A DNA stretch of 64,000 nucleotides from Candidatus Rariloculaceae bacterium (GTDB taxonomy: Bacteria; Pseudomonadota; Gammaproteobacteria; Steroidobacterales; Rariloculaceae): contig JBJKYL010000013.1 in the NCBI GenBank assembly GCA_045561055.1, positions 64,495-128,494 on the forward strand, in the 5' to 3' direction. The notes below the pieces were generated by a model, which searched no databases, was not told the origin of the DNA, and was given only the letters and a program-made list of their open reading frames with translations. Made by a program: the position numbers and the translations under genes. Shown piece by piece: positions 4,286-41,976 of this stretch (its first letter is position 1; every line of letters begins with the position of its first letter).

Positions 4286-5875
4286 ATGAGGTATTGGCTT
4301 GTTTTTTTAACCGTGTTTGGTCTCAGTATTCCTGCAGCCTATTCTCAAGAAAACCGTCGTCCGAATATTCTTTACATTGTCGCGGATGATCTGGGATTCA
4401 CCGATATTGGCGCATTTGGTAGCGAAATATCAACGCCTAATCTTGATGCATTAGCTTACGAAGGCGTTAGGTTGACGAACTTTCACACGGACCGTTCTTG
4501 CCAGGCTACCCGCACGATGTTGATGACCAGCACTGGAACAGGAAGATCACTGCAACTCATTGGGAATCCTATGAGCGGTAGGCGTGGGCATCTGTTGCGA
4601 CAGGATTGGGCAATTCTTCCAGAATTTCTGCAGGACGCTGGTTACACGACGTTTATGACGGGAAAATGGGATCTTGGTATTGGCGAAAATTATACGCCAC
4701 ACACGCGTGGATTTGATCGTTCCTTCGTGCTCCTTGACGCTTCGGCTAGTCATTTTGCAGAAAAATTCTGGGAGGACCCGACACCGTATCGGGACGAAGG
4801 TGTCATAGTGACGATTGATGACTTGCCTGAGAACTTTTACTCCACCGAGTACTACACGGACAAAATGATCGAGTACCTACAGGCCCACGGTAGCGATGAG
4901 CCTTGGTTCGCATACGTCCCCTATACCGCGCCGCATTGGCCTTTACAACTTCCTGATGCTTGGCTGGACCGTTACGCTGGAAGATACGATGAAGGGTACG
5001 ACGTATTACGCGAAGAGCGCATGGTGAAAGCCGAAGAACTGGGCGTGTTGCCGCCGAATGCTGACCCAGATAGCTATACGTTCTCCGAAAGTTCCTGGGC
5101 AACACTCAGTGCAGAAGACAAAGTGAAGCATGCGCGTGCCCAGGAGATATATGCCGGTATGGTTGAGTACATGGATATGAGTGTCGGCCGGCTCGTAGAT
5201 TATTTAGAGCAAAGCGGTCAAATTGACGATACCGTGATCATGTTTTCTTCCGATCATGGTGGTTCCGACAGTGCGGCTGGTCTAGTGGAAGGTGCACAGA
5301 CGGGTAACGTGCCGAATCTTGACCGTCGCGTCGAGAATTACGGTCGTAAGCGTTCTTATATCGACCATGGGCCCGGATTTGCTTCAGCGTCGACGGCGCC
5401 GCTCAAGGGTTATAAAGGAATGCATACGGAAGGGGGGCTGACTGCTGCCGCGTTCCTTTGGTATCCGGCGCAGATCCTGGCCGGTACGGTGAATAACACC
5501 TACATGACTGTTATGGACGTATTACCAACTTTTCTTGAAATAGCGGAAACTGAACACCCCGGCGCGTCTGAGTATAAGGGGCGTCAAATTAAAGGTATCG
5601 TTGGTCGATCGTTTTGGCCACATCTGATCGGTGAAGCCGATTTAGTTCATCCCCCGACTGATATTACTGGATGGGTGAACCGCGAATTCGGCGCGTTGAT
5701 TCGCGGTAACTTCAAACTTGTTAATGGAGAATCGTTAAATGCCGACGGTGTATCGCCATGGCAGCTCTACGATCTTTCAATTGATCGTGGTGAGACACGA
5801 GATATCTCCGCCGAGCATCCCGAATTGACTGCAGAACTTGCCGCTGAATGGCAAGAGAATTGGAGTCAGCGTTAG
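4286..5875 (+). CDS. Exported Cys-type (formylglycine) arylsulfatase, AtsA-like
   Basis: Signal peptide, then PNILYIVADDLGFTDIGAFGSEISTPNLD and the FGly motif SCQATRTMLMTS (C-x-A-x-R); later SSDHGG. Shine-Dalgarno-like GGAG lies 5 nt upstream of the ATG. About 60 percent identical by eye to the broken paralog at 29975-31670. Confidence 0.9.
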   Translation: MRYWLVFLTVFGLSIPAAYSQENRRPNILYIVADDLGFTDIGAFGSEISTPNLDALAYEGVRLTNFHTDRSCQATRTMLMTSTGTGRSLQLIGNPMSGRRGHLLRQDWAILPEFLQDAGYTTFMTGKWDLGIGENYTPHTRGFDRSFVLLDASASHFAEKFWEDPTPYRDEGVIVTIDDLPENFYSTEYYTDKMIEYLQAHGSDEPWFAYVPYTAPHWPLQLPDAWLDRYAGRYDEGYDVLREERMVKAEELGVLPPNADPDSYTFSESSWATLSAEDKVKHARAQEIYAGMVEYMDMSVGRLVDYLEQSGQIDDTVIMFSSDHGGSDSAAGLVEGAQTGNVPNLDRRVENYGRKRSYIDHGPGFASASTAPLKGYKGMHTEGGLTAAAFLWYPAQILAGTVNNTYMTVMDVLPTFLEIAETEHPGASEYKGRQIKGIVGRSFWPHLIGEADLVHPPTDITGWVNREFGALIRGNFKLVNGESLNADGVSPWQLYDLSIDRGETRDISAEHPELTAELAAEWQENWSQR

Positions 5876-7717: not shown

Positions 7718-8728
7718 ATGAAGGTCTTAATAGTTCTGTTTTGTTTTATGTTAGCGCCGACGCTTGGTTTTTCGCACCATTCGCGAGCTGAGTTTTCAGA
7801 TGAAGTCGAAGAGATTACCGGTGAGCTCATTAGTGCGCGTTGGACTAATCCTCATCCAGAGCTGACATTGCTTGTTACTGGGGCGGACGGACTACAGGAG
7901 ACGCTCGTCGTCCAGGTATATGGTGCCGCTAACAATTTACGGCAAGCTGGCGTCACCGACGAGTTGTTCGATATTGGGGATGAGGTGACGATTGCTGGTC
8001 AGCGTTCCTCCCGTCGCGAAGACTTAATCCTCGGCACACATATGCTATTGGTTGATGGTAGACAGGCTATTTTTCATCGCACGTTAGAGCCGTTTTGGTC
8101 GACCGAAATCGTCGGCGGCATGGAAAATTTTCTCGAAGCTGGTTCGGGGCTTGCGGATGGGTTGGCGGAGAATCGAGGATTGTTTCGGATGTGGAGCATT
8201 GTGCAGGGTCCCGGTGGTGATCGTCGTAGTCTGCATATGCTATTGACTGAAGCTGGGATAGCCCGACAGGCTGAGTTCGATGAGGAAAACAGCTGGATTG
8301 GTCGCCTTGAAAAACCTGGCATGCCCGCTTTTATGAACAGTCGCAATAATTTCGAATTCTTTGACGATGGTGACACGATTCGTTACGAGCAAGGCGTGTT
8401 TGATGTCGTACGAACTATCTATCTCCCGGAATCAGAGGGGTTAGAGGACCCTTCCCACTCACCACTAGGTTACTCGACCGGACGGATGGAAGGTAGGACT
8501 TTAATTGTTGAGACAACTCGGCTTAATTGGCCTTACTTTAATCGCGAAGGGATTCCGTTAAGTGAAGATGTGCATATTACTGAGAGATTTACCGTAAGTG
8601 ACGACCAGACAAGTCTCGATTATCACATGACCATTGTCGATCCTGTTAACTTTTCGGAGCCAGTAACTTTGACGCGCCATTGGGTAGCGCTAGAGAACCC
8701 GACGCCTGACGAACGCTACGTTCGATAG
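7718..8728 (+). CDS. Exported fused N+C two-module protein, paralog L2 (the only Cys-free member)
   Basis: MKVLIVLFCFMLAPTLGFS|HHSRAEF, then RWTNPHPEL. Linker GLFRMWS. C-module has EKPGMP (no Cys), LGYSTGRMEGRTLIVETTRLNWPYF, TERFTVSDD, VDPVNFSEP, and a C-terminus ENPTPDERYVR with no Cys. Confidence 0.85.
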   Translation: MKVLIVLFCFMLAPTLGFSHHSRAEFSDEVEEITGELISARWTNPHPELTLLVTGADGLQETLVVQVYGAANNLRQAGVTDELFDIGDEVTIAGQRSSRREDLILGTHMLLVDGRQAIFHRTLEPFWSTEIVGGMENFLEAGSGLADGLAENRGLFRMWSIVQGPGGDRRSLHMLLTEAGIARQAEFDEENSWIGRLEKPGMPAFMNSRNNFEFFDDGDTIRYEQGVFDVVRTIYLPESEGLEDPSHSPLGYSTGRMEGRTLIVETTRLNWPYFNREGIPLSEDVHITERFTVSDDQTSLDYHMTIVDPVNFSEPVTLTRHWVALENPTPDERYVR

Positions 8729-9860: not shown

Positions 9861-10481
9861 CTAGTTAGATGTTAGTTGTTCGGAATCAATGCGTTTCGCT
9901 TCTACGGTAATTTTTAGGTTGACATACATCAGGTGACCATTCTCTATGCCGTAGGTAACGCCATAGTCGTCGCGATTGAAGGTGCCGGAGGCGTCAGCTC
10001 CACAAATCATTTCTTCAGCACGACGGTGGTGTGGTTGGCATCGAAAATGTTCAATCGTTAGTGATAGCGGGTTCGTAACGCCGTGCAGCGTTAGTTCGCC
10101 TTCAATTCCGGTCGGATCGCCATATCTCGTAAACGATGAAATGATGCCGGTATAGCTAGCTGTCGGAAATTGGGCAACGTCGAGGATGTCTTCGGCTTTC
10201 GCATGCCTATTCATGTCGTCTAGACCGAAATTAATGGAATCCATATCGAATGTTAGGTCGACAGAGCCCGTCTTCGCTTCTTGATCAAGGATTATCGTGC
10301 CGGCTGTCCGTTCAATTTTTCCGCGCCAAATAGAGAGTCCACCCTGATGGTCTGCCTCAAAAGTCGGGAACGTATGTCGCGGGTCGACTTCGTAGAGAAC
10401 TGGTTCCGCAGAAATTACAGTCATCGCAATAGTGCAAAAACAACCGAGTGTTGCGCTAAGAAATTTCGTATTACCAATCAT
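9861..10481 (-). CDS. YceI-like periplasmic lipid/polyisoprenoid-binding protein
   Basis: Signal peptide, then YEVDPRHTFPTFEADHQGGLSIWRGKIERTAGTIILD and ELTLHGVTNPLSL, which is the YceI family signature. Confidence 0.8.
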   Translation of the reverse strand: MIGNTKFLSATLGCFCTIAMTVISAEPVLYEVDPRHTFPTFEADHQGGLSIWRGKIERTAGTIILDQEAKTGSVDLTFDMDSINFGLDDMNRHAKAEDILDVAQFPTASYTGIISSFTRYGDPTGIEGELTLHGVTNPLSLTIEHFRCQPHHRRAEEMICGADASGTFNRDDYGVTYGIENGHLMYVNLKITVEAKRIDSEQLTSN

Positions 10482-10493
10482 TAGGCTATACCT

Positions 10494-11546
10494 CTATCGA
10501 GTAGTGTAAGTTTCGTAGTATTCGTTTCTAGCATTGGTGATTGTGAAGCGACTACCGTCTGCTTCAATCTCCGCTTTGATCCAGTGAGCTTGATCGTTTT
10601 CCACAGTTAGGTTAGCAGTTTTTCGGGCCTCGGTGTTATGGGCGTCGTCCGTTCCTGTCGCGCGATGCATTTGCCAGAAGCCCTCAAGACCGGGGCTTGC
10701 CGCGGCTGTTTCGTAACCGTCGGGATTACCGCCCTTTGTCGCGCCGGTACTGGAGACTGCAGCAATCGGCGCCAGCGACCATACGAACTGTGGCGCAATA
10801 TTGTTGCCATGATGCGGGTAGTCGAGTAGATCGATTGTGCCAACGTTATTGGTTGGGCAGACAAGTGTGTGCAAACCACCCCACGACAGATCGCCGACGT
10901 TGACGTACTGAAAGTCGCCCATCGAGAGATGGAAGCCTAGGCTGTATATGTCCTCGCCATCCGTATCGAGCCCGGTTGGCGCGCAGTCGTCGCCTCTACA
11001 GTACAGGCCATTCGGATCTGTATTTTCGCAAACGGGGTTCGGACCCGGTGATCCGGCCAGAGGTGCGCCAAGGAATTGCTTGTCTCCGGCTATAATTGTT
11101 ACATCGACGCCGCTGAGCGGTAGGATATCTCCCGGCGAGACTGAAGTTCTCTTTCCGGTCTCCGCTGCGGTCAGGTAACGCTCGAAGTTCTCGACTTGGC
11201 GGCCGGAAGTCAGGGTGCTGTCTCCGTAGTCGATAAACTCGATGATCGGCACCATTTCCGCTAGCGCGTAAACCCCGCCCACATGATCGCCGTGAAAATG
11301 AGTCGCGACGAAGTAGTCGAGCTGTCCGACCGCGGCGTCGTCCATGGCGGCTTTGATGCGGTGCGAGTAGATGTCGCCCGGCCGGTCGAATGCGGCGTCT
11401 ACCAGGATCGCCTGGCGCTCCGGCGTCACGATCAGCGTGGCTGCGGCACCGTCGGCGTCGATCCAATAGATATCCATATGTTGTCCATAAACAGCTGATG
11501 TCAAGCAAAGTAGGAGGAGTCCTAACCAGATGTTTACGTTTTTCAT
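10494..11546 (-). CDS. Secreted MBL-fold metallo-hydrolase with intact metal motif
   Basis: Signal peptide MKNVNIWLGLLLLCLTSAVYG. Intact motif VATHFHGDHVGGV (HxHxDH) and a later YPHHGN. Confidence 0.8.
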   Translation of the reverse strand: MKNVNIWLGLLLLCLTSAVYGQHMDIYWIDADGAAATLIVTPERQAILVDAAFDRPGDIYSHRIKAAMDDAAVGQLDYFVATHFHGDHVGGVYALAEMVPIIEFIDYGDSTLTSGRQVENFERYLTAAETGKRTSVSPGDILPLSGVDVTIIAGDKQFLGAPLAGSPGPNPVCENTDPNGLYCRGDDCAPTGLDTDGEDIYSLGFHLSMGDFQYVNVGDLSWGGLHTLVCPTNNVGTIDLLDYPHHGNNIAPQFVWSLAPIAAVSSTGATKGGNPDGYETAAASPGLEGFWQMHRATGTDDAHNTEARKTANLTVENDQAHWIKAEIEADGSRFTITNARNEYYETYTTR

Positions 11547-13051: not shown

Positions 13052-13966
13052 ATGCTGAATGTTTATCGATTCGGATTTTATTGGGATCCATGTTCGCTAT
13101 TGGTGGTCGCCGGGTTTTCTGCACTAGTTAGTGCGCCAGTATCTGGACAAGTTGATATTGATAATATGTGGCGTCCTCTGCCTCACAATCAGGACGGTAG
13201 CGGCATGATTGGCGATGCTGCTGGTGTGCCGCTAAATGACGATGGTAAATCGCGAGCAGAGACCTGGTCGCCTGACCAATTCGACATGGCTGAGTGGGTC
13301 TGCCGGCCGCACGCTTGGGACGTTTCTCTGGAAGGTCCGTTAGCTCAAGTACGGTTCTCGTCACAATACGATGCCGCAACGCAAGGGGTTGATGCATACC
13401 TTGGCCACATCTACATGCAGTGGCAGCAACAGACCATCTGGATGGATGGCCGCCCACATCCATCGAAGAACGCGCCACATACATGGAGCGGCTTTACGAC
13501 CGGTGAATGGCAAGGCGATGTCCTGGTGACAACCACCACGCATGTCAAGGAAGATTATGTTCGACGTTGGGGCTTGCCGCGCAGTGATCAAACAACCCTG
13601 AGGACACACTGGCGCAGAATGGGCGACTACCTTCAGGCGACTGTCATCATGTATGACCCGATCTACATGACGGAGCCTTACACCCGTAGCTCGCTGATGT
13701 GGATTAGGGATCCCGGGCTGAACATGGATCCATACCCTTGCGAAGAGGCAACGGAGACTGCGGTACCAAAAGGCACTACGGCGCATTTTTTGCCCGGACA
13801 GTCATATATGCCGGCGTACGATCCCGAGCGATCGGATTCTTTCGCGACGCCGTATGAAGCGAGAAGAGGGGGAGCAGAGTCTATGTACCCGGACTACATC
13901 CGAAAGATGGAAACAATGGCTGCTCCCTCGTTAACTTTAGATCCCGCCGATATTCGAAGCAACTAG
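13052..13966 (+). CDS. Exported C-module-only protein (paralog C1), function unknown
   Basis: Signal peptide ending VSAPVSG|QVD. EWVCRPHAWD, WSGFTTGEWQGDVLVTTTTHVKEDY, MYDPIYMTEP and DPYPCEEA match the C-module pattern of the fused paralogs. First gene of a tight plus-strand operon. Confidence 0.7.
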   Translation: MLNVYRFGFYWDPCSLLVVAGFSALVSAPVSGQVDIDNMWRPLPHNQDGSGMIGDAAGVPLNDDGKSRAETWSPDQFDMAEWVCRPHAWDVSLEGPLAQVRFSSQYDAATQGVDAYLGHIYMQWQQQTIWMDGRPHPSKNAPHTWSGFTTGEWQGDVLVTTTTHVKEDYVRRWGLPRSDQTTLRTHWRRMGDYLQATVIMYDPIYMTEPYTRSSLMWIRDPGLNMDPYPCEEATETAVPKGTTAHFLPGQSYMPAYDPERSDSFATPYEARRGGAESMYPDYIRKMETMAAPSLTLDPADIRSN

Positions 13967-13970
13967 TGAT

Positions 13971-14981
13971 ATGTTGAAAGTTACACGTTTCGGAGTTAGC
14001 CGCCTAACGATCAGTCTATGTCTGGCGAGCTTGCTTGCGTCTGGAGCCCAAGCACAGATATGGCCGACGTCAGTAATTGGGGTGCCTGAAGGGGAGATAG
14101 AGGTTCTCCACGTCAAAGGTAACGTCTACATGTTAGCGGGTTCCGCTGGCAACATTGCGGTGCAGGTCGGTCCTTCAGGTGTGTTAATGGTGGACACCGG
14201 TAGTGCTGCGCTGGCCGATAAGGTATTAGCAGCGGTCGAGACGATCACGAGCGAGCCAATCCGCTACATCGTTAATACCAGTTACCCGGAGGATTATACC
14301 GGTGGCAATGGGACGATTTCGGCGGCTGGACGGTTAGCGACCCCGTTTCGCGGCAGCGGAAGTAGTTCTGTGCAGGGCCAATTCGGTGGGGACAGATCTT
14401 CTGTCATCTCCTACTACACCGTGTTTCATCAGATGGCGGCACCCTCCGATGAGGCGCTAGTCAGAGAGGAAAATTCGTGGCCGGATAATACATTCTCGAC
14501 GCCATTGAAGCGATTGTATTTTAACGACGAGCCAGTGATGATGATGCACCAACCGTCGACGACCGACGGTAACACGATCGTGCTATTCCGAAAATCGGAT
14601 GTCATTGCGGCGGGCGCTGCGCTTAATTTGGAAACCTATCCCGTTATCGATATTGAGGCCGGCGGCAGTATTCAGGCAGTGGTTGTTGCGTTAAATCGGG
14701 TGATTGATATGGCGGTGCCTTCCGAGCGTTCTGAAGGCGGAACGCTGGTGATCCCAGGCCGTGGCAGAATCTCTGATTTTGCAGAGGTGGCACAGCAACG
14801 GGATATGATTTCAATTATCCGCGACCGTGTTCAGAGCATGATTAACGAGGGTATGTCCTTGGCCGATGTGCTCGAAGCAAGACCAACCGAAGGCTATGAT
14901 GTTCGCTATGGAAGTGATAGTGGTCCATGGACAACAGACATGTTTGTCGAAGCAGCCTATTTGAGCCTGGTGGGGCAGTGA
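13971..14981 (+). CDS. Secreted MBL-fold protein with degenerate metal-binding motif (probable pseudoenzyme or binding protein)
   Basis: Signal peptide ...LLASGAQA|QIW. NVYMLAGSAGNIAVQVGPSGVLMVDTGS is the MBL beta-hairpin start. Where HxHxDHxGG is expected the sequence reads IVNTSYPEDYTGGNG, so only the Asp is kept. Starts 4 nt after the upstream stop. Confidence 0.7.
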   Translation: MLKVTRFGVSRLTISLCLASLLASGAQAQIWPTSVIGVPEGEIEVLHVKGNVYMLAGSAGNIAVQVGPSGVLMVDTGSAALADKVLAAVETITSEPIRYIVNTSYPEDYTGGNGTISAAGRLATPFRGSGSSSVQGQFGGDRSSVISYYTVFHQMAAPSDEALVREENSWPDNTFSTPLKRLYFNDEPVMMMHQPSTTDGNTIVLFRKSDVIAAGAALNLETYPVIDIEAGGSIQAVVVALNRVIDMAVPSERSEGGTLVIPGRGRISDFAEVAQQRDMISIIRDRVQSMINEGMSLADVLEARPTEGYDVRYGSDSGPWTTDMFVEAAYLSLVGQ

Positions 14982-15000
14982 TTAAGCAGGGAGTTTTCTG

Positions 15001-15399
15001 ATGAAACAATTTAGATTGATGCTACCGTTTGTGATTGGCGGAATTGTTTTTCTGGCAATTACTGGACGCGTACTGGCACACCATTCGTTCTCAGCGACTT
15101 ACCTGCAAGGCAATCAAATCGAAGTCCAAGGCGCAGTTAAGGAACTAGTATGGCGTAATCCGCATTCCTTCTTAAGAATCGATGTTGAGGATGAGAATGG
15201 TGTGTTGCAGACGTGGTCATTGGAATGGACTTCTGCAAATCGGCTGGCCGGTACTGAGATGACCCGAACGACGCTCCGTCCGAAAGACGTCGTTATTGCA
15301 ACTGGAGATCCAGCACGAACCCCGGGAGCGCCACGTCTTTTGCTTCGCCAGTTGAGGCGGCCTAGCGATGGTTGGGAGTGGATTGGTGATATCGACTAG
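15001..15399 (+). CDS. Exported N-module-only protein (His-His/NPH; DUF6152-like by recollection), paralog S1
   Basis: MKQFRLMLPFVIGGIVFLAITGRVLA|HHSFSATYLQGNQIEVQGAVKELVWRNPHSFLRIDVEDENG...WSLEW...; 132 aa. Its end overlaps the next gene. Confidence 0.85.
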   Translation: MKQFRLMLPFVIGGIVFLAITGRVLAHHSFSATYLQGNQIEVQGAVKELVWRNPHSFLRIDVEDENGVLQTWSLEWTSANRLAGTEMTRTTLRPKDVVIATGDPARTPGAPRLLLRQLRRPSDGWEWIGDID

Positions 15400-16189
15400 T
15401 ACTATAACTTCGTTCCGATCTGGGGTTATCCAGGCACTGTTGCTTTGCTTTGCAGGGTGCTCGGCCTTTGCGCAAGACGGAGGCGAGATCACCGGACGTC
15501 AGCGCATGTCGGAGTCGCAAAATTTGACAGGCTACTGGGTCTCAGTTGTGACACAGCATTGGCACTATCGAATGCGAATGCCGCCGAAGGGGGCGACGGC
15601 CAAGATCCCACTTAATGAGACAGGGCGCCGAATTCTTGAGTCTTGGAATCCTGAGGCTGATGCTGCCAATGGCCATGCCTGCCGTGCCTATGGCGCTGGT
15701 AATATCATGCGTATACCAGGCCGCTTTCATATACATTGGGCGGATGACAATACGCTACAGATTGATACCGATTCTGGTACTCAGACGCGTCTTCTACAAT
15801 TCGCTCCGCAAACGTCAGCTTCCGAGGTAGAACCATCGTTACAGGGGCGGTCTGCAGCAGCATGGGTTGGAAGGGAAGGTGCGCCAGAGGGTAGTCGTAA
15901 CGCGGATCAGAACGATCCTAATGCAGTTCGATACTTGGTTGCGTCTACCTCTCGCCTGCTTCCAGGGTATCTGTTGAAAAATGGAGTTCCCTACAGCGGT
16001 AGTACGACTCTTGAGGAATATTTTTACACGTTCACAGAGCCAAATGGTGACGAATGGCTCGTCGTGACAACATTGATCGATGACCCAGAGTTTCTAGCTC
16101 GGCAGCATGTCACCACTAACCAATATAAGAGAGAGCCAGACGACTCTGGGTGGGACCCAACGCCTTGCCAGGTTGATAAGCCTCGTTAG
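15368..16189 (+). CDS. C-module-only protein, probable lipoprotein (paralog C2)
   Basis: ATG at 15368 or in-frame GTG at 15386. Signal with LLLCFAGC lipobox-like end. NLTGYWVS, GHACRAYGAGN, VVTTLIDDPEFLARQ and WDPTPCQ match the C-module in a diverged form. Overlaps the upstream N-module gene by 32 nt (or 14 nt). Confidence 0.65.
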   Translation: MVGSGLVISTSTITSFRSGVIQALLLCFAGCSAFAQDGGEITGRQRMSESQNLTGYWVSVVTQHWHYRMRMPPKGATAKIPLNETGRRILESWNPEADAANGHACRAYGAGNIMRIPGRFHIHWADDNTLQIDTDSGTQTRLLQFAPQTSASEVEPSLQGRSAAAWVGREGAPEGSRNADQNDPNAVRYLVASTSRLLPGYLLKNGVPYSGSTTLEEYFYTFTEPNGDEWLVVTTLIDDPEFLARQHVTTNQYKREPDDSGWDPTPCQVDKPR

Positions 16190-18540: not shown

Positions 18541-19641
18541 TTAGGGTCCAGCGAATGCGGCTTCAAATTGCAAATGGCGTCGTGAAGTCTCTTCGTCACA
18601 GACTTCACTGCTGAACTCATAATCCGGAACTTTCATCGTCATTTTTCTGAGAGTGAAGGGTTCTCTCAAGAATACGGGGTCCTCTATTGTGTACGAGTAA
18701 TCCATACGCAGCCCACCGTCAACTAACTTATAGCGCTCTGTGACTATCATTTGATCACTGGAATTGATCCCTCGGACTATACCCCAGGGCATCGCCCGGA
18801 ATGCATGCGTTTCCACCACGAGGGTATCGTCACTTTCGAAGTGGCCGACCGAATAACCGAGTTCGGTCAGTTCGTAGTCATTAGGCGGCTGCCACGGGCC
18901 ATTCAGATGGATGACCCGAACCTGGCCAGTCGTGTCCTGAGTGATGCGAATTTCACTTTCCGTTCGGGTCCATAGGCGTGGGAACGGCCAATCGATGATT
19001 CTTGGTAACGCCATCGGCACGCAATCGAAATATGGATCAGTATTGGCATCATAATCTTCCGTCAATTCCTGCCCCCTTTGCGTGAGCGCCATGTCTGCCC
19101 ACGGGGTTTCAAAGTTGCTCACTAGCATCCTTCTGAGATCTTCCGCCCGAGGTAAACCGGAATACCTTGTCCATGTCCCCGAGAAGTCGGTGGAAGGTTC
19201 AAGGGTCACAGATTCGGATTCATCTCGCTGATCCGTTGGCAGTACTGCTTGCTGGAAAGAGTAGAGCAACGTCCCATCGTCGCGTCTGACCGAGTCGAGA
19301 AGCGCGAGCCTTATGCCTTGAGTACGACTCGGGTTCGCTACGACGACGAGGTGGTCTCCTAGTTTTAATGCGTCTCTACTCCAGCCGTTTCTCTCCAACC
19401 CAGAAACGGAGTGTGACTCCAGCGTCCATTCTTCAGATTGGCTACCTTGTTCAGTGGAATTTACCACGAGGTAAACATGCGGATTGCGCCAAGTTATTTC
19501 GGTGACTGTGCCCTCAATCTCGATTGTCTCATCCAGTAAGAAACCTGAGCGAGAATGATGCCCCAGAGTCTGGAAACTTTGTAAAAAAGCTAGACAGAAA
19601 AACGAGGAAAGGCCAAGACTAATTATTCTTGATCTATTCAT
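18541..19641 (-). CDS. Exported fused N+C two-module protein, paralog L3
   Basis: ...FLQSFQTLG|HHSRSGF, TWRNPHVYL, GDHLVVVANP. C-module has FSGTWTRYS, YFDCVPMALP, LGYSVGHFESDDTLVVETHAF, TERYKLVDGG, IEDPVFLREP and SEVCDE. Confidence 0.85.
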   Translation of the reverse strand: MNRSRIISLGLSSFFCLAFLQSFQTLGHHSRSGFLLDETIEIEGTVTEITWRNPHVYLVVNSTEQGSQSEEWTLESHSVSGLERNGWSRDALKLGDHLVVVANPSRTQGIRLALLDSVRRDDGTLLYSFQQAVLPTDQRDESESVTLEPSTDFSGTWTRYSGLPRAEDLRRMLVSNFETPWADMALTQRGQELTEDYDANTDPYFDCVPMALPRIIDWPFPRLWTRTESEIRITQDTTGQVRVIHLNGPWQPPNDYELTELGYSVGHFESDDTLVVETHAFRAMPWGIVRGINSSDQMIVTERYKLVDGGLRMDYSYTIEDPVFLREPFTLRKMTMKVPDYEFSSEVCDEETSRRHLQFEAAFAGP

Positions 19642-19749: not shown

Positions 19750-20817
19750 TTAAAGTTCCCATTCGGGCACACAATCGAATTCGTATAGGTTTACTCCAGG
19801 TATCCATCTACGGGGCATCTCTAGCGTCACGGGTTCTGCCAGCATGACCGGGTCTGTCATTGTAAATGTATAGTCTAACCACTCCCCATTTTCCCGTGTC
19901 GAGAATCGTTCAAGATAAGTCATTTGATCGGATTGTGGCATTGAACCCTCTAAGGCAATGGGATGATCGATATGACTTGTGTTCACAATGAGATCATCTC
20001 CCTCCCAGTGGCCTAGCGAGTAGCCAACATTCGAATAGGTCGGTTCAGGAGCGGTCTCAGCGTTCATGTAGACGTAGCGATGCGTGTTGTACTGTTCAAT
20101 CCAAATATGGACTATATCGTCCTGATTTTCGATTAGGATTCTAGATCGTTCGAACATTGCCGTCGGCATGCCAGTCTGGCACTGCAGTTCGGTAGCATCG
20201 TTACCCCCCGGATCTAGCGTGGCGGCGATCGCATGGCCCTGGTCTGAAAGATATGGCTGATATGCAGAGAGCGGTGGTTGCGAGGCTTGCCGTATACTCC
20301 ATAGACGGAATATGCCGTCTGCATTCGCTCTGTCCTCTGCGATTCTAGCTTCGGTAGCCGCCATCTCGCTAGGTTCCCAGAGTTGACCCCATCGTGCCGT
20401 CGTTACGCCAGCCATCCCGCCTATATGTTCTAAACCATTGGGCAATAGAAGGTTAGTTAGTCCTAAGGCTGATGGATCACGTCTGGAGACAAAGCCCGCC
20501 GCCCTAACAAAATCTCCAACCTGCACAAATTCTTCCTGGGTAACACCAGCTCGAAGGAATGTGGTGGGGCTTGGGCTCGCTTCGAGCTCCCAAACTTTTC
20601 CGTCCACATCCTCCATACGATAACGTATATGTGGAGCACGCCAGAAAACATCGGTGATTGTGCCTTCGACCTCAACTGGATCGTCTGGATTAGGTGCGAT
20701 ATATAGCGCTTGATTAGTGACGCCACCGTGATGGGCATTAACGACGGCTGCAAGGAATACGCCGAATACACCAACGATGGACCAAATAACGGATCTGAAG
20801 CTTTTTAGAATCGACAT
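19750..20817 (-). CDS. Exported fused N+C two-module protein, paralog L4
   Basis: ...FLAAVVNA|HHGGVTNQ, FWRAPHIRY, GDFVRAAG. C-module has GIFRLWSI, ELQCQTGMP, VGYSLGHWEGDDLIVNTSHIDH, LERFSTRENG, MTDPVMLAEP and YEFDC. Confidence 0.85.
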   Translation of the reverse strand: MSILKSFRSVIWSIVGVFGVFLAAVVNAHHGGVTNQALYIAPNPDDPVEVEGTITDVFWRAPHIRYRMEDVDGKVWELEASPSPTTFLRAGVTQEEFVQVGDFVRAAGFVSRRDPSALGLTNLLLPNGLEHIGGMAGVTTARWGQLWEPSEMAATEARIAEDRANADGIFRLWSIRQASQPPLSAYQPYLSDQGHAIAATLDPGGNDATELQCQTGMPTAMFERSRILIENQDDIVHIWIEQYNTHRYVYMNAETAPEPTYSNVGYSLGHWEGDDLIVNTSHIDHPIALEGSMPQSDQMTYLERFSTRENGEWLDYTFTMTDPVMLAEPVTLEMPRRWIPGVNLYEFDCVPEWEL

Positions 20818-20971: not shown

Positions 20972-22714
20972 TCATCGGCTAAACATATACACAGCGCCTG
21001 AGTCGGGTATCGAGTTGTCATCCTGATCACCATCTACTCCAACGGCATTACTATCCTCTAAATATGCACCTACGACAAAAACGGAACCATCCTTACTAAT
21101 GCTAACCGAGCTTCCAAATTCATCAAACATTTCTGTATTTGAGCCTTTAACGTAGGCTTCTTGCAGCCAGGTTTGACCTTCTCGGGTGAATACATACACG
21201 GCACCCGCCTCTTGCGCAGAGTCGTTATCCTGTAATCCATTAATTCCTTGCGCGGAGCTATCCTCATATTGAGCGCCTACCACTAGCACATTTCCATCAC
21301 CACTGACGGCAAGCCGGGAGCCAAAGACATCGCCTGATCCAGTATTAGAAGCCTTGATATAAGCCTGCTGTGACCAGCTACCATCATTATTTTCAACGAA
21401 CGCATACACTGCGCCCGTCGTTGGTCGGATGTCGTCTTGGTAGTCGGGGCCGGGAATATTGTTGATTCCGGTCGTTAGCCCATCCTCATCTTGGGCGGTT
21501 CCGATGACTGTTTTTCCGTCATCACTGATTGCTACTGCGACACCCAAAGAATCACCCCGCTCAGCGTTAGAAGCCTTCAGATAACCGATCTGATCCCAGG
21601 TATCACCATCAAAGTCAAATACATAAATAGCGCCGGTACCGCGGACTAAACCATCTTGATACTCGTTAGTAGAAGCAGGCGAACCGTCCTCGTCGTAGCC
21701 ACCAATTGCGACACGCCGGCCATCACCGGTGATGGCTAGCGAATAACCGAATAATGCATCAACCTCGGGATTCGATGGCTTTAGATAGGCTGTTTGAGTC
21801 CAAGTTTCTCCCTCACGTTCAAATACGTAGGCAGCACCAGCCGATCGCTTGGAGTTGTTGAGTTGGTCGCCGTTCATGCCGGTAGCATTGCTATCTTCCG
21901 CTGTGGCAGAGACGATCAGTTTATTACCGTCATCACTCAGTGCCAGGGCAGCGCCGAACTGATCACCGTCGTCGAATTCTTCACCATAGGAGTTTTCATA
22001 GGAATATTCGCCAGCATTTATATTTCCGAAATTTTCAGTTGCCAACGGCGGCGCGTCTGCGGGAACTTCTGTGGCCACATGCCCAGTATTTGACGCTTTG
22101 ATATAGGCCTCCTGAGTCCAGGTCGTTCCGTTGCGGACAAAAACATAGGCAGCACCAGACTGACCGATTGAATCGTCGTTCTGATCTCCGTTGATACCGG
22201 TCGCTGCACTAGACTCGAAATGAGCTGATACGGCTAGTGTGTTACCGTCAGCGCTCAGAGAGGTAGCAAATCCGAAGTTATCGGTTACGCCAGGGTTAGA
22301 CGCTTTAATATAAGCTTGCCGAACCCAGCTACCGCTTTCATTAGCAAATATATAGACCGCGCCAGAACCGAACAAGGATTCGTCGTCTTGGTCGCCGTTA
22401 ATACCTGATGAGCTACTACTTTCGAATGGTGCGCCAACGGCGAGTGTCATACCGTCGTCACTCAGCGACACTGCATTATCACCAATAGCTGAGCCGCCCG
22501 AACCGAAATTAGCGCCGAACGAAGGGTTAGAGGCTTTAAAATATGCAATCTGAGTGATACCGCTGCTTTGAATTGCGGACGGTGCGGCTTGCTGTTCAAC
22601 CTCTAGAGGATCCGTTAAGTTCTGTGCGGCAGAGTCAGTGGGCTCGTCTCTCGGCCCTGTACAAGCGGCGACGAACGCATAGCTGATTAGCAGCGCATAT
22701 ATTTTGTTATTCAT
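20972..22714 (-). CDS. Lipoprotein with seven FG-GAP/integrin-alpha-like repeats (predicted 7-bladed beta-propeller)
   Basis: Lipobox LLISYAFVAAC. Seven units of the form [AG]Y[IFLV]K[APG]SN...FG..[LV]..S.DG..[LV].VGA..E.S...GING[DL]Q.[DN].S....GA[VA]Y[VM]F: AYFKASN, AYIKASN x3, AYLKPSN, GYLKASN, AYVKGSN. The start overlaps the upstream N-module stop as ATGA. Confidence 0.75.
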   Translation of the reverse strand: MNNKIYALLISYAFVAACTGPRDEPTDSAAQNLTDPLEVEQQAAPSAIQSSGITQIAYFKASNPSFGANFGSGGSAIGDNAVSLSDDGMTLAVGAPFESSSSSGINGDQDDESLFGSGAVYIFANESGSWVRQAYIKASNPGVTDNFGFATSLSADGNTLAVSAHFESSAATGINGDQNDDSIGQSGAAYVFVRNGTTWTQEAYIKASNTGHVATEVPADAPPLATENFGNINAGEYSYENSYGEEFDDGDQFGAALALSDDGNKLIVSATAEDSNATGMNGDQLNNSKRSAGAAYVFEREGETWTQTAYLKPSNPEVDALFGYSLAITGDGRRVAIGGYDEDGSPASTNEYQDGLVRGTGAIYVFDFDGDTWDQIGYLKASNAERGDSLGVAVAISDDGKTVIGTAQDEDGLTTGINNIPGPDYQDDIRPTTGAVYAFVENNDGSWSQQAYIKASNTGSGDVFGSRLAVSGDGNVLVVGAQYEDSSAQGINGLQDNDSAQEAGAVYVFTREGQTWLQEAYVKGSNTEMFDEFGSSVSISKDGSVFVVGAYLEDSNAVGVDGDQDDNSIPDSGAVYMFSR

Positions 22715-23133
22715 CGATTTGGGGGTTCCTCAGTAAATATGACCTCACCTGTGTCCGTGAGGATAACCTGCGCTCCGTTGGCACCACGCGAAAGTCTGAT
22801 ACTAGGGGCTCCATTCTTCATTGCTAAGCCGCGAACTGTCACTCTATCACCAGGTTTCAGGATATTTTTGTGCCAGCCTTCCGTGGCCATTAGCGGTGGG
22901 TTATTGAATTCGGCCATCCAGCGCACCGGATTGCCAGCTTCATCTTCTACTTCAACAGCGAGTAGCGCGTGGGGATTGATAAACATTAACTGAATGACTG
23001 TGCCGGAAATTTCTGATAGCTGATCTTCGTATCGACCAGCTGTGCCGTGATGCGCATATGCAACTGAGCTTACCAATACACTCACAGTCAGTACGTGAAG
23101 TGCGGCATGAAAGCGTCTATTTACTTTGTTCAT
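22711..23133 (-). CDS. Exported N-module-only protein (His-His/NPH), paralog S2
   Basis: MNKVNRRFHAALHVLTVSVLVSSVAYA|HHGTAGRYEDQLSEISGTVIQLMFINPHALLAVEVEDEAGNPVRW...GDRVTVRG; 140 aa. The stop overlaps the propeller start by 4 nt. Confidence 0.85.
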   Translation of the reverse strand: MNKVNRRFHAALHVLTVSVLVSSVAYAHHGTAGRYEDQLSEISGTVIQLMFINPHALLAVEVEDEAGNPVRWMAEFNNPPLMATEGWHKNILKPGDRVTVRGLAMKNGAPSIRLSRGANGAQVILTDTGEVIFTEEPPNR

Positions 23134-27033: not shown

Positions 27034-29612
27034 TTAGAAGGTGTAGTTTATGCGTAAACCAACTTCTCGAGGAAGACGTGGACGGTACCGCCAGGTGTTA
27101 TCAGCCAAAGCTTTTTGGGTCCATCCACCCCCCCGCAATTACATTGCCAGTACGGTCTCTATAATCATCAACATCAAGGGGTACACTTGAGTTGGTGAGG
27201 TTATTGCCGAACACAATGACGTCCCAGTTGTCATTGGTAAAGCGGACTTGGCCTGTGACCGTGTTCGAAGCCGGTAGCGACATCAGGTTGGCGACATCAT
27301 AGTATCTTGAACTGGCATAACGTGTGCCCAATCGTCCGGACCATTCCCAACCACCGCCTAGTACCGCTGGCGCTGTGAACTGAGCTGAAAGCGAATATTG
27401 AAGCTCTGCATTTCTTTCGATTTCATTCCCGATGACGTCATAACACCCTGCGCCACCTTTCGGTTGTTCCAGTTGCCGTGTAACCGAAGCGGTCGACCAT
27501 GGAATAGTCACAGTTATGACCATATTTATTGTCTTGGAGTGACATGGTGTACCTGAATGACCAGTTATCGTTTAGCACGTAATTAGTCTCAAGCTCGATA
27601 CCCTTCAGGTCGCCCGTGCCAGAATTTTTTCGCACTCCATTGATGTCGGTATAGTCTTCGTCGTAGATAAGGCCGTTAGTATAGGTACCATCGTTCCAGC
27701 AAACTGTGGTTGGTTTACCCGCACAGCCACCCGCCTCCGTAACGATTTCACCCGTCCAGATAAACCGTTCGTTGATCATCATATCTTGCCAGTCAATTGC
27801 GTATATTGCGGCCGTTAGTTGCAGTCTACCGTCTAACGCGGAGCCTTTAACTCCAAACTCAAGGTTAGTCAGCGTTTGCTCTTTGGCCTTCGCAAAATCA
27901 GCAGCGGTATAGTTGATAAATCCTGCTTTCTTCGCGGCTTCACTCGCAGCCTGAACTGTTGGATTGATCATCTCCGGTGTAGCAGTGGCAGGACCGCCAC
28001 CCTGGGCTAGCTGGCCATAAAGAGAAAAGCTGTCATTGAGCATGTAATTAAATGACAGGCGTGGTTGGAATGAATCCGTTACCTGAACAATTGTTTCAGT
28101 GCTAACAATATCTCTTGTCAACTGTTCGTCTCTTTGAACGCGGCCCTCAGCGCCGAGGGTTAATCGATCATTAACATCGTAGGTGATGCTACCGTAGATA
28201 CCTTGCGCACTGGTATCGACGTTCTGTCGTCGGGCTGGCTCAAATGGTTTGCAGTCGTTTAGCAGACAAGCCAGACCGTGTTCCGGGTGTTCAACGTCCA
28301 TAAACTCGTTGATGGCAGCATCGCTATAGCCAAAGTCGAAACTAGAAAATCCAACCAACCAACGAAGTTGCTGGTCTCCTGGCGAGATCCACCGCACGTC
28401 AAGGTAGGTTTCCTTATCAGATCCACGGCGATTGCCCATTGTTGCCGGTATTTCGGGAACTAAAACCTTTCTTTCCTGCGGTTTTTGCATCCGACATATC
28501 GGAGTCTATCCACCGCCTTGCGACGTCCTCTGTCGATGAACCAACGATTTGTACCAAAGAGCCACCGCCTCAGGTTGAAATTAAATTCACCTGAAATCCT
28601 CTCGCGATCCTGAATTGCACCGGGGTTCGTGATGCTTTCTGCCCATTGCCTTGTTGTAATCGGTGGTGCCTTTCGTGTATTCACTACGGAGGTCATGATT
28701 CCGCGGGTTCGGACCTGAATTTAGCGTACAGTTGAACTCCCCTTTTATATAAGGCCGACCGTTAGCTAGGGTGTGATTGTTACAAAGGTGTACTGTATCC
28801 CCGGGGATCAGATATTCACTACCCGGTCCGTCATCCACATCCGTCATCTGCGCCATGATCTCCATGTCGAAGAAATCGCTAGGAGCCCACTTCAGTTTGC
28901 CAGATACAAACTTGGTGCTCGTGGATCCAAATTTATAGCCGTCGGTAGTAACCCACTCGTCAGGAGCGTCGAATGTTTCATTCGCAACATCTAACGTAAA
29001 GCCTAAGTTATCTGTGATCGGACCACCGAGCGCCGCGCCGAGTATTGAGCGGTTCTGGTCGGAAACAGTCATCTTCACTTTAGACTCAAACTCTTCGCCC
29101 GGATCTCGCGTCACATAGTTGACGGCACCGGCGAATGTCGCACGGCCAAAAGCAGCGCTTTGGGGGCCACGCAAGACTTCAACGCGCTCTAGATCGGTAA
29201 AAGCCATCGAGGCGTTTGTACCGAAGAGGGGAGCGCCGTCGATGAAGATGGAAACGAGTTGGTTAATTGGATTCTGCGATCCCGGGTTAATGCCCCGCAT
29301 CGTTGTCCTGCCGCCTTGTCGTTCCCGGGTCTGCTCATAGTCGACGCCTGGTGTTTCGGCATAGAGATCGAAAGTGTCCAAGATATTCGCTTCTTCGGCA
29401 AAATCGGCGGTTAGTACCGAAATCGCAACAGGGACATCAAGAAGAGTCTCTTGTCGTCTTCGGGCTGTGACCACGACTTCTTCAAGAGATTCTGAAGCGC
29501 CTATCTGTGCTTGGGTGTTCGTTGTCGGAGCGATTGTTAAACCGAACGCTAGTGTAATCGCGAACGGAATCCCAATAACCGATTTTCTAAGTAAATGCCC
29601 GCAAGTAAACAT
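27034..29612 (-). pseudogene. TonB-dependent outer-membrane receptor broken by at least three or four frameshifts
   Basis: N-terminal ORF 28587-29612 has the signal peptide and plug (LEEVVVTARRRQETLLDVPVAISV). Barrel pieces continue in 28460-28696, 27438-28490 and 27101-27523. A final frame ends GLRINYTF-stop at 27034-27036, the canonical TBDR C-terminus. The last shift coincides with a C7 run at 27128-27134. Confidence 0.85.
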
Positions 29613-29856: not shown

Positions 29857-29974
29857 TAAGAAAATTAGCTGGATGCGCACATCAATATTTGCTTATAGGT
29901 AAACTCCTTGCAAACTAGATCTGTTATCTTCCTGGTGTAAAGCGCTCGCAAAATAATAATAGGTGAGGAGTCAT

Positions 29975-31670
29975 ATGATGACATTAGTAAAGAGTGTATT
30001 TGGATTTTTGGTGCTGGGTGCGCTGTGCGCTTGCACCCCAGAAACACCGATTAGTTTCTCCGTAGATCCTGAAACAGTAGCCGCTACGGACGGTCAGCCG
30101 AATATCCTTTTTGTCGTCCTTGATGATCTTGGCTTTACAGATATGGGCGCGTTCGGCAGCGAGATACCGACACCAAATATCGATCGGCTAGCATTTGAAG
30201 GCGTGCGGTTAACCAATCTGCATGCTGCCGCGAACTGTCAATCGGCTCGTATCATGTGGATGGCAAGCACGAGTATCGCAAATGGTATCGGTATCTATCC
30301 GAGAGATGTTGAGCGGCCGGCGGGTATTCGTGGGTCCTATTTAAGCCTGGAATACGCGACGATTGCGGAGCTCCTGCAGGATGCCGGATACCAAACCTTT
30401 ATGGCGGGTAAGTGGGATCTAGGGGGTTTAGAGCACTCGCCAGCAAGGCGTGGATTTGACCGTAGTTTTGCACTCCTTCCCGCATCAGCCGATTATTTCG
30501 GCAACAATCAACGCCCGATTTCTTACGAGGAGGACGGCCGGCCGGTAGCGCTAGACGAACTACCGGATGACTTTTATACGACTAATTATTTCACTGATAA
30601 AACGCTCGAGCATCTACAGGCAAGTGATCCAGATTCACCCTGGTTTGCATACTTATCTTTCAATGCTCCCCATTGGCCGCTCATGGCACCAAGACGACTG
30701 GCTCGACCGTCACGCTGGCCGTTACGATGACGGTTACGACGTGCTTCGTGAGCAACGCGTCGGGCGAGCGAGTGAGTTAGGGGTCGTGCCAGCAGGTTTG
30801 TCACTTGATTCTTTCGTTCCGGTTGCGGAGCCCTGGGATCAATTAAGCCAAGTTGAACAGCGGCGCTATTCACGTGCTCAGGAAATCTACGCGGCTATCG
30901 TTGAGCATACTGATATGAACATCGGTCGAGTTATCGATTACCTTGAAGAAACTGGACAGCTTGAAAACACAGTGGTCATGCTGATGTCGGACCATGGTGG
31001 TTCAGCTGCCGAATCCGGAGTGTCTACAGGCCGGCTACCGACCGAAGAAAATATCCGCGGCCTTGATCCCTCTGAGATTGATAATAGTTTGGAAAATTTT
31101 GGTCGTGGTAATTCATTTATCGATCATGGCATAGGTTTTGGCGAAGCGGCGAGCGCGCCATTTCGACAGTTTAAAGCGACCTTGAGTGAGGGTGGGTTAA
31201 CCGCTGCCGCGTACGTTCGTTACCCGAGTGTGGTGCCTGCCGGCGGAGTCAGCGATACGTTCTTGACTGTAATGGATATCTTGCCAACTTTTCTTGAGAT
31301 CGGCGGGACCGAGCATCCCGGTGCGGGTGAGTATCGTGGACGTTCCATTCACGGTATTCTCGGTCGGTCGTTCCTACCCATGCTAGTAGGCGAGACAGAG
31401 GTAGTTCATCCGCCGACCGAACCGTTTGGTTGGTATCGTGGCATTTCTGGCGCTCTAATTCGCGGTGACTATAAAATCATTAATGATATAGAGCTAAGTC
31501 CGGTAGCCGGTTTATCAGGGGAACGGGCCGGATTACCGTGGCGATTGTATAATTTGGCAACCGATCGCGGCGAAACTAATGATTTGGCGCTAGAATTTCC
31601 AGACCTTACAGCTGAGCTCGCGGCAGAATGGGAAGCGAATTGGCGTAGCCGAGAGGCTAGACATAATTAA
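29975..31670 (+). pseudogene. Cys-type arylsulfatase (paralog of 4286-5875) interrupted by one frameshift
   Basis: ORF 29963-30730 (likely ATG 29975 or 29978 after AGGTGAGGAG) carries PNILFVVLDDLGFTDMGAFGSEIPTPNID, NCQSARIMWMAS and FNAPHWPLMAP. The frame is then lost near 30686-30692. ORF 30567-31670 resumes DDWLDRHAGRYDDGYDVLREQR, colinear with the intact paralog (APHWPLQLPDAWLDRYAGRYDEGYDVLREER). Confidence 0.85.
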
Positions 31671-37170: not shown

Positions 37171-37172
37171 CG

Positions 37173-38495: not shown

Positions 38496-38506
38496 CTATT
38501 CGTACC

Positions 38507-39367: not shown

Positions 39368-39613
39368 ATCATAATCAAGTTTGACACGATTCCCTCACTA
39401 CAATCAGAGAGCGTGATTCAAAATAGTAATGAGTAAACGATAAAATATTATCACTTGCGTTAAAATCGCATCGGCTCTGCAAAATTGTGTCCATCTACAA
39501 TATCATCAAGACGGTACTACTTCCTGCTTGCCGTTATAATAAGTGATCACATTTGTGAATATGCTTCCGAATTTAGTGAGTAAATATTAATGAATCTTCG
39601 TGCAGAGTGGAAT

Positions 39614-40905: not shown

Positions 40906-40916
40906 ATTAGTTTCGG

Positions 40917-41483: not shown

Positions 41484-41501
41484 ATCTTAAGGATGGGATG
41501 A

Positions 41502-41975
41502 GTGACAGTTTCAATTTCATTGACAGTGAACGGTGAATCGGTCTCCGCTGAAGTCGATTCCCGTATGCTTCTCGTAGAGTTACTACGCGAGGAACTCGGA
41601 CTGACCGGAACGCACGTTGGTTGTGATACTAGTCAATGTGGTTGCTGTGTCGTGCACATGGACGGTAGATCGGTAAAGAGCTGTTCGATTCTTGCTGTTA
41701 CTGCTAGAGATGCTGATGTGACTACAATCGAAGGTTTAGCATCGGGAGATACACTCCACCCGATGCAACAGGCATTCCACGAAAATCACGGTCTACAATG
41801 TGGTTTTTGTACGCCTGGGATGATCATGAGTGCAGTAGACCTTGTTGAGCGGAATCCGGATCCGAGCGAGGCTGAGATTCGTAAATGGCTCGACGGTAAT
41901 TTATGTAGGTGCACCGGTTACCATAATATTGTCAAATCTATAAAGGCTGCTGCTGCTGCCGTTCGGGGCGATTGA
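41502..41975 (+). CDS. [2Fe-2S]-binding small subunit of a molybdenum hydroxylase (CoxS-like)
   Basis: [11 protein letters not shown] (plant-type cluster), and [12 protein letters not shown] plus CRCTGY (second cluster). 157 aa. Confidence 0.9.
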
Positions 41976-41976
41976 A

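Follow-up and report, generated by a model that had tools for sequence, protein, structure and literature searches.

A DUF6152 module and a predicted calycin-like barrel, encoded as one chain or as neighbouring genes, are probable parts of one exported system

Fused and separate forms of two modules

In a 64,000-nucleotide stretch of DNA from the marine gammaproteobacterium Candidatus Rariloculaceae bacterium (assembly GCA_045561055.1, contig JBJKYL010000013.1, positions 64,495–128,494; hereafter the window), two exported protein modules are encoded both as one polypeptide and as separate neighbouring genes, for example at 15001–15399 and 15368–16189. The amino-terminal module (N) corresponds to the Pfam family DUF6152, and the carboxy-terminal one (C) is predicted to be a calycin-like barrel. 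We consider it probable that N and C belong to a single conserved system, exported to the periplasm, and that they are made either as a single chain or from co-transcribed neighbours. At 13052–16189, the pair stands in a four-gene cassette, in which it is preceded by a second C-type gene (C') and by a gene for a metallo-beta-lactamase (MBL)-like protein. The genomes nearest to this source are 72–76% identical, and one Joint Genome Institute metagenome contig (locus L001) is 99% identical.

The window genes were compared by means of an open reading frame (ORF) listing and all-against-all BLASTP, and domains were assigned by Pfam scans. In total, 13 genes of the two families were found, namely five fused N–C, four N-only and four C-only genes (Table 1). 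The five fused genes and the three same-strand N/C neighbour pairs described in the initial annotation of the window were all recovered, with unchanged coordinates and junctions; the N-only gene 22711–23133 and the MBL-like gene 13971–14981, which sits between C' (13052–13966) and the pair 15001/15368, had been left out of it. Within the window, the same two modules are therefore found fused in five genes and as adjacent separate genes in three pairs, and both states are conserved in the databases. The functional link between N and C that had been read from this Rosetta-stone pattern holds and is well supported at the level of sequence.

The separate N and C genes are closely spaced. The stop codon of 15001–15399 (TAG, 15397–15399) lies inside the C gene, which overlaps N by 32 nt if it starts at ATG 15368 and by 14 nt if it starts at GTG 15386; GAGG/GGGAG-type ribosome-binding sites are found upstream of both starts. 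The genes 39614(39590)–40177 and 40174–40905 share an ATGA stop/start overlap, whereas a gap of 134 nt lies between 46426–46851 and 45497–46291 on the minus strand, and a check of its sequence found neither a promoter-like nor a terminator-like site. Stop and start codons thus overlap, consistent with translational coupling, in the first two pairs but not in the third. Among orthologs, the N–C spacing ranges from −32 to +54 nt. Both halves had been said to carry separate export signals, and a signal peptide could indeed be read directly in the sequence of each split half.

Relatives of all three pairs retain the N–C adjacency across phyla, down to about 41–50% identity. A 61%-identical homolog of 45497–46291, for instance, has a DUF6152 gene 40 nt upstream, and the combination of a long N with C (39614/40174 type) is conserved in loci L087, L088, L090 and L091; in one 40%-identical relative, the adjacency is lost. 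The 39614/40174 pair of the window is embedded in a molybdenum-hydroxylase gene set (34783–42777), which consists, in order, of the large subunit (34783–37170), a major facilitator superfamily (MFS) transporter and a fumarylacetoacetate (FAA) hydrolase on the opposite strand, N, C, CoxG, and the 2Fe-2S and flavin adenine dinucleotide (FAD) subunits. A 59%-identical relative (L087/L088) has the molybdenum subunit, MFS transporter, N, C and CoxG, with Amidohydro_2 in place of the FAA hydrolase.

Intactness of the separate genes

The short genes might be decayed pieces of fused genes, produced by frameshift, nonsense mutation or assembly error, in which case the split pairs would be pseudogenes. 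This explanation deserved testing because the window does hold two genes that are truly broken, one for a sulfatase and one for a TonB-dependent receptor; moreover, the overlapping N and C genes at 15001/15368 are read in different frames. It is nevertheless extremely unlikely. A tblastn search with all 13 proteins, the decay check proposed in the initial annotation, detected zero remnants of the missing modules anywhere in the window, and each C gene opens with its own signal peptide. The 32-nt overlap recurs in L001, an independent metagenome contig, at 99% identity, and an ORF scan found a similar N/C overlap in the related genomes L008 and L010.

Thousands of homologs from several phyla are stand-alone and of the same length. 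The gene 15368–16189 has 5,768 homologs at E ≤ 1e-3, the best 120 of which are all stand-alone, lack DUF6152 and are mostly about 250–280 aa long; homologs with 50–55% identity are found in Acidobacteriota, Chloroflexota, Alpha- and Gammaproteobacteria. The 46 homologs of 40174–40905 (about 240–265 aa) are of stand-alone size except for the weakest match. At E ≤ 1e-3, 45497–46291 matched 7,377 representative clusters, and among the best 150 of these, 106 are of stand-alone size, nine are tandem C–C proteins and three include an N module. The tandem relatives among these 150 measure 450–540 aa (P0290, P0300, P0302 and others). The stand-alone genes found in the locus survey described below (221 C and 94 N, against 11 N–C fusions) also argue against decay. 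Judging from these comparisons, the split genes have not decayed from fused ones: they are intact and conserved, and their products are exported. A programmed frameshift joining 15001/15368 into one N–C product was also considered and rejected, as the overlap enters the signal peptide and the orthologs from other phyla do not overlap.

A conserved four-gene cassette

For the survey of the cassette, one genome per species was scanned, which yielded at least 592 relatives of cassette C; 80 loci were kept and their ORFs were annotated by profiles. The arrangement of 13052–16189, that is C'–MBL-like–N–C, or a close variant of it was found in these loci, which represent several phyla. The full order is present in 23 loci. 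Among the variants, 12 loci have MBL–N–C, with C' directly downstream of C in six of them, and about 22–25 have C'–MBL–C and lack N. Among the loci with enough flanking sequence, the MBL gene is missing from one only. Where N is present, it lies in most loci between MBL and C, directly before C. Orthologs of C' occupy the same position in the 80 loci (E-values down to 1e-170), and independent gene calls from Vicinamibacterales and Rhodospirillaceae give the same order. The tally of ORFs comprises 221 stand-alone C-type, 94 stand-alone N, 83 MBL, 12 C'–MBL and 11 N–C ORFs.

The 12 C'–MBL fusions, each a single polypeptide of 600–650 aa, constitute a second Rosetta stone within the cassette. One of them, of 654 aa, was confirmed by an independent gene call in L005 (2595–4559), and others were found in L015, L016, L017, L030, L056, L061, L076, L079, L083 and L086. 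The four genes of the cassette have correlated distance matrices (r = 0.69–0.84). Judged by gene order and sequence, the cassette is ancient, and Acidobacteriota, Alpha- and Gammaproteobacteria and other phyla have inherited it as a unit.

These results modify the picture of N and C as one functional unit. The functional link stands, as supported by fusions and conserved adjacency, but the unit at 13052–16189 is the cassette of four genes. Likewise, the extra C gene that had been noted in this operon is present as C', but the MBL-like gene intervenes and C' belongs to the conserved cassette. The statement that N is always upstream applies to all three pairs of the window; in other genomes C may come before N, and one C–N fusion was found. 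Because orders such as MBL–C–C'–N and a paralogous MBL-like–C-like–N, both with C ahead of N, exist, N upstream is not a universal rule for these genes.

Clustering of the ORFs of the 80 loci gave no further conserved neighbour, no family being present in more than 15 loci; amidohydrolase, PEBP, cytochrome c, pyrroloquinoline quinone (PQQ) dehydrogenase and Mo-hydroxylase genes each lie near a minority of the loci. A TonB-dependent receptor was rejected as a regular partner, being present in 4 of the 80 cassette loci. A tblastn search of plasmids with cassette C gave no match. C-type homologs are carried by Novosphingobium plasmids, and on plasmid NZ_CP011453 of Croceibacterium atlanticum (L095, 5578–9777) two DUF6152 genes, a gene for a C-type protein and one for a TonB-dependent receptor follow one another on one strand. 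This N–N–C arrangement next to a receptor in a cultured member of Erythrobacteraceae is a hint of a link to uptake.

Direction of change between separate and fused genes

The separate N and C phylogenies suggested in the initial annotation were constructed by neighbour-joining for the modules of the window only; the sequences are short and divergent, which limits the resolution of the trees. The two trees disagree. In the N tree, the stand-alone modules 46426, 22711 and 39590 cluster together with 100% bootstrap support. In the C tree, the modules of their partners are not grouped: 45497 has the C half of the fused gene 18541 as its sister (91%), 40174 falls with the clade of four fused genes, and 15368 and 13052 form a clade of their own (100%). 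All N–C fusions in the 80 loci are from Rariloculaceae or related proteobacterial loci. The incongruent trees, together with the stand-alone majority outside this lineage, favour several independent fusions or module exchanges over fission. Fission of resident fused genes is thus not the likely direction. According to sequence distribution, stand-alone genes are the majority and probably the ancestral state, and N–C fusion seems to be restricted to certain lineages.

The same incongruence would fit another explanation, in which N and C are simply expanded secreted families clustered in a catabolic island, and local duplication has made them neighbours without any functional coupling. The surroundings also fit this view, as the 13 members are packed in 64 kb among genes for varied exported and catabolic enzymes (sulfatases, NHL, MBL, esterase and amidohydrolase). 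We find it very unlikely all the same. When four N and four C labels were distributed at random over 57 genes, N stood next to and upstream of C three or more times with P ~1.4e-4; the adjacency is kept between phyla whose neighbouring genes otherwise differ; fusions occur in both the N–C and the C'–MBL combination; and stop and start codons overlap in two of the three pairs.

The N module

Eight of the nine N modules of the window score above the gathering threshold (27 bits) of Pfam PF19649 (DUF6152), with 39.8–81 bits. The ninth (19750–20817) scores 22.7 bits, which is under the threshold, but aligns with the family and keeps the His-His and NPH-type histidines described below. Fused homologs carry the NCBI name 'DUF6152 family protein'. 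The Pfam entry covers only the N module of about 100 aa and gives no function, whereas the C module, the fusions and the cassette lie outside it. No match for the N modules was found in the NCBIfam scan, and a profile search of the N family against the sequences of the PDB revealed no relative. A literature search for DUF6152, PF19649, a histidine brace with an oligonucleotide/oligosaccharide-binding (OB) fold, or Rariloculaceae returned nothing relevant in the library covered.

In the AlphaFold2 model of the fused protein 31702–32715, the predicted local distance difference test (pLDDT) score exceeds 90 over residues 27–114, which correspond to the N domain. Foldseek pairs this domain with the OB domains of LysRS, PolD and Rim1 single-stranded DNA-binding protein (probability, 0.9–1.0), and weak Pfam matches of N are to the OB-like families DUF4131, TOBE_3 and tRNA_anti-like. 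Based on the model, the N module is predicted to be a small OB-fold.

A His-His pair follows straight after the signal peptide in all nine N modules of the window. In fused homologs, the pair lies at median position 20 behind a hydrophobic stretch, with A/G/S at position −1 and A/V/G/T/S at position −3 in 119 of 120 sequences; because of these (−3, −1) residues and the preceding h-region, the mature N chain is predicted to begin with His-His. Histidine is accordingly the predicted first mature residue in those 119 homologs and in all nine window copies. Of 239 distinct DUF6152 domains, 236 have both the His-His pair and the histidine of a (W)xNPH motif further along the chain, the three exceptions being two truncated ORFs and P0334 (L094, 3001–4128). 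The latter has the reverse order, C–N, and is the only such fusion seen; its N part lacks His-His, and NPH is replaced by NPY.

According to the literature, cleavage of the signal peptide exposes a histidine in CopC and YcnI, and this residue binds Cu(II) via its amino group and side chain (PMC12362106). Histidine-brace proteins (CopC, YcnI/DUF1775, lytic polysaccharide monooxygenases and PmoB) resemble the N module in being exported and in combining an invariant amino-terminal histidine with a second invariant histidine elsewhere. They differ in having a cupredoxin- or Ig-like sandwich, while N is a predicted OB-fold with the motif His-His...NPH, and the likeness is one of analogy only. As N does not have the Ig-/cupredoxin-like beta-sandwich, it is not filed as a member of the histidine-brace group and may at most be a functional analogue. 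Among OB-folds, CusF is a small periplasmic metallochaperone with His/Met/Met/Trp ligands within the barrel. Metallochaperones of this type have the fold and the periplasmic location that are predicted for N, but their ligands are in the barrel instead of at the amino terminus, and there is no sequence similarity; the CusF-type family is not among the Pfam matches of the N modules.

N is also found beside a partner other than C. The N-only gene 22711–23133 overlaps by 4 nt the start of the FG-GAP gene 20972–22714, with no C module there; a DUF6152/FG-GAP pair is likewise present in L001 (5860–8021), and L007 has a matching N gene.

The C module

The assignment of 15368–16189 to the C family was initially the weakest point, because its sole BLAST match in the window is 13052–13966 (E = 1e-5). 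It was settled by hhalign, which aligned the 15368 family with the fused family at 98.7% probability (E = 2e-16, 167 columns), with both cysteines aligned. The C module has no NCBIfam match and no Pfam match with any member of the alignment (E ≤ 10), and a profile search of the C family against PDB sequences found no relative.

The model of fused 31702–32715 (pLDDT 87; predicted template modelling score, pTM, 0.80) consists of two domains joined by a disordered linker. Foldseek relates its C domain to FABP/CRABP (probability, 1.0; target template modelling (TM) score, 0.5–0.59), and relates the model of the stand-alone cassette C to avidins and streptavidins (probability, ~0.9); the order of secondary structures in the latter is the same as in the fused C. 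The first strand reads ITGTW in streptavidin and VGTW in FABP, and G-x-W is a signature of calycins. In the cassette C family, G55 and W57 of such a motif are invariant; in the fused family, W155 is nearly invariant. The motifs read on the first strand of C modules are TGYW, TGVW, SGTW and FRVW. Two further residues, C105 and C267 in 15368–16189, are invariant cysteines of the C module. Taken together, the C module is predicted to be a calycin-like barrel of the avidin/FABP/lipocalin fold type, probably with eight strands. It has the G-x-W strand in common with members of the calycin superfamily (avidin/streptavidin, FABP/CRABP and lipocalins), and an up-and-down barrel of about eight strands is tentatively predicted for it; unlike them, it measures about 190–230 aa, has three to four helices inserted after strand 1 and carries the two invariant cysteines. 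A lipobox (FAGC) in 15368–16189 was rejected, as its cysteine is not conserved in orthologs, while A35-Q36 at the predicted cleavage site is conserved in the family.

The MBL-like partner

At the seven metal-ligand positions of MBL proteins, 13971–14981 reads S-x-P-x-D-Y, T, A and R, and the Asp alone is kept. In an alignment with 88 orthologs, some keep HxHxDH, H, D and H, and all seven ligands are retained in 23 of the 83 cassette MBL genes. A relationship at the level of fold is kept, as indicated by Lactamase_B (17 bits; gathering threshold, 22.7) and TIGR04559 (E = 5e-12). Based on its sequence, the window protein is probably a pseudoenzyme.

The closest described group is that of SoxH-like or 'quinoprotein relay system' periplasmic MBL hydrolases (TIGR04558/TIGR04559), to which the cassette MBL gives partial matches (E = 5e-12 and 1e-10). 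A further resemblance is that PQQ dehydrogenases or c-type cytochromes are found near the cassette, in a minority of loci. The cassette MBL differs in scoring 41–46 bits against cut-offs of 280–300, in matching over about 65 residues and, for the window copy, in being without the ligands.

A second MBL gene of the window (10494–11546, minus strand) was considered as a cassette member and rejected, being an ordinary HxHxDH protein (HFHGDH) unrelated in sequence. It is followed by a YceI-like gene (9861–10481, minus strand). YceI is a lipocalin-like periplasmic barrel, and this is another MBL-plus-barrel pairing, unrelated to the cassette.

Proposed mechanism and its alternatives

In the reading we prefer, the barrel of C would hold a small ligand, and N would dock on this barrel and contribute a metal site on its free amino terminus, comparable to the histidine-brace sites of CopC and YcnI. 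The two invariant cysteines of C probably form a disulfide. In the lineage of the window, the MBL-fold partner, having lost its zinc ligands, would probably act as a scaffold, and N–C fusion may have arisen in particular lineages from the probably ancestral stand-alone genes. The pTM of the fused model, reached despite the disordered linker, suggests a defined N–C interface in the fused chain. A metal site that needs a free amino terminus could explain why N comes first in the N–C fusions; a site on the processed amino terminus of N would likewise account for the signal peptide that each split half has of its own, and the internal N of P0334, which has no free amino terminus, might for this reason be without both histidine features.

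Several observations weigh against this reading. N is absent, within 8 kb on either side, from about 25 of the 80 cassettes, and it pairs with an FG-GAP protein, so C does not strictly need N. Among the distance matrices of the cassette genes, the highest correlation is that of N with C' (r = 0.84), compared with r = 0.78 for N–C; because N tracks C' at least as well as C, the mirror-tree analysis does not single out an N–C contact. In favour of the reading, loss of MBL ligands goes along with N, which is present in all 16 cassettes whose MBL keeps two or fewer ligands and in eight of 25 with six or more (83 cassette MBL genes; Fisher P = 9e-6, Spearman rho = −0.48), but this association is not corrected for phylogeny and is treated as a lead. 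As regards the models, that of cassette C is of moderate quality (pLDDT 69), and the TM-scores of the fold matches are low (0.2–0.27 on the query, 0.45–0.6 on the target). Because of these low scores, and as no calycin family or PDB chain is matched in sequence, the relationship of C to calycins is one of fold. The region of His20/21 has a pLDDT below 50 in the AlphaFold2 model, and to our knowledge all histidine-brace proteins are beta-sandwiches and none is an OB-fold.

Part of this evidence would fit a different core unit, composed of C', MBL and C, that is an exported MBL-fold hydrolase with two barrels, to which N is an optional accessory that joins various exported partners; its association with C would then be loose and not that of an obligate complex. 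In the cassettes without N, the HxHxDH..H..D..H site is intact for the most part, 12 ORFs encode C' and MBL as one chain, an FG-GAP gene is the neighbour of N in both the window and L001, N–N–C stands beside a TonB-dependent receptor on the Croceibacterium plasmid, and N correlates best with C', not with C. We regard this arrangement as rather unlikely, since N–C fusions are common (the fused paralog 31702–32715 alone has at least 310 homologs, of about 335 aa), the pTM of the fused model suggests a fixed N–C interface, and N stands directly before C, between MBL and C, in most N-bearing cassettes.

The preferred system of N and C can be extended further, in a form that we hold to be doubtful: DUF6152 would be a new class of extracytoplasmic metalloproteins, in which the His-His terminus and the NPH histidine make up a brace-like centre that serves the ligand in the C barrel and has functionally replaced the binuclear zinc site of the MBL in the cassettes with N. 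If so, cassette DUF6152 would act on the barrel-held ligand or hand metal over to it, while the MBL partner decays into a scaffold, and soil Acidobacteriota and marine Proteobacteria would have in this cassette a widespread periplasmic system, an enzyme or a chaperone, that has gone unrecognised.

The Rosetta-stone pattern is in itself an ordinary kind of evidence, and its interest lies in the system that it exposes. N is catalogued as DUF6152, an entry without a function, and the C module, represented by thousands of sequence clusters, is yet outside Pfam and NCBIfam, and sequence searches found no relative of it with a solved structure; the folds themselves are of known types. The network of fusions and adjacencies (N–C, C'–MBL and C–C) joins four uncharacterised exported proteins into one system, which is conserved from soil Acidobacteriota to marine Gammaproteobacteria. 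Three testable hypotheses follow: a metal site at the amino terminus of N, a ligand pocket in the barrel, and an MBL-like pseudoenzyme. Cultured carriers usable for genetics are available, with the split pair on the Croceibacterium atlanticum plasmid and C-type homologs on the Novosphingobium plasmids.

Features of the window and its broken genes

Table 1. Genes of the N and C families and their partners in the 64-kb window
Feature	Position	Strand	Evidence and remarks
Fused N–C paralog	1608–2693 (ORF opens at 1512; likely start near 1608)	+	BLASTP, Pfam, signal peptide
Fused N–C paralog	7718–8728	+	BLASTP, Pfam
C' gene, C-module paralog; first in cassette; own signal peptide	13052–13966	+	BLASTP to fused C halves, E = 1.7e-13
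Exported MBL-like gene; second in cassette	13971–14981	+	Weak Lactamase_B and TIGR04559 matches
N gene; signal peptide, then predicted mature His-His; WRNPH motif	15001–15399	+	PF19649, E = 2.4e-19
C gene; signal peptide; predicted calycin-like barrel; TGYW first strand; C105 and C267	15368–16189	+	hhalign, AlphaFold2, Foldseek
Fused N–C paralog	18541–19641	-	BLASTP, Pfam; C half sister to C gene 45497–46291
Fused N–C paralog	19750–20817	-	BLASTP; DUF6152 22.7 bits, under 27-bit threshold
FG-GAP repeat protein, 580 aa; non-C partner of N module	20972–22714	-	Pfam FG-GAP_2, E = 6e-37
Fourth N-only gene	22711–23133	-	DUF6152, E = 5.5e-21
Fused N–C paralog; source of structure model	31702–32715	+	At least 310 homologs of ~335 aa; AlphaFold2 pLDDT 87, pTM 0.80
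N gene with C-terminal extension of ~75 aa	39614 (or 39590)–40177	+	DUF6152, E = 1.6e-15
C gene paired with 39614–40177; CoxG/CoxS/CoxM-like genes downstream	40174–40905	+	BLASTP to fused C halves, E = 3e-19
C gene paired with 46426–46851	45497–46291	-	7,377 representative clusters matched at E ≤ 1e-3
N gene; 134-nt gap to its C partner downstream	46426–46851	-	DUF6152, E = 7e-23

Between a GntP permease gene and the C gene 45497 lies an ORF of 355 aa (44255–45322, plus strand), for which no Pfam or NCBIfam match was found. The two broken genes of the window are both outside the N and C families. Two ORFs that overlap in different frames (29963–30730 and 30567–31670, plus strand) make up the sulfatase gene; they match residues 16–223 and 224–529, respectively, of the intact paralog 4286–5875 with 51% identity; 29963–31670 is a frameshifted pseudogene or contains an assembly indel. 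The TonB-dependent receptor gene (27101–29612, minus strand) is broken into a Plug ORF (28587–29612), a barrel ORF (27438–28490) and a tail ORF (27101–27523), and its straight translation contains several stops and an out-of-frame stretch.

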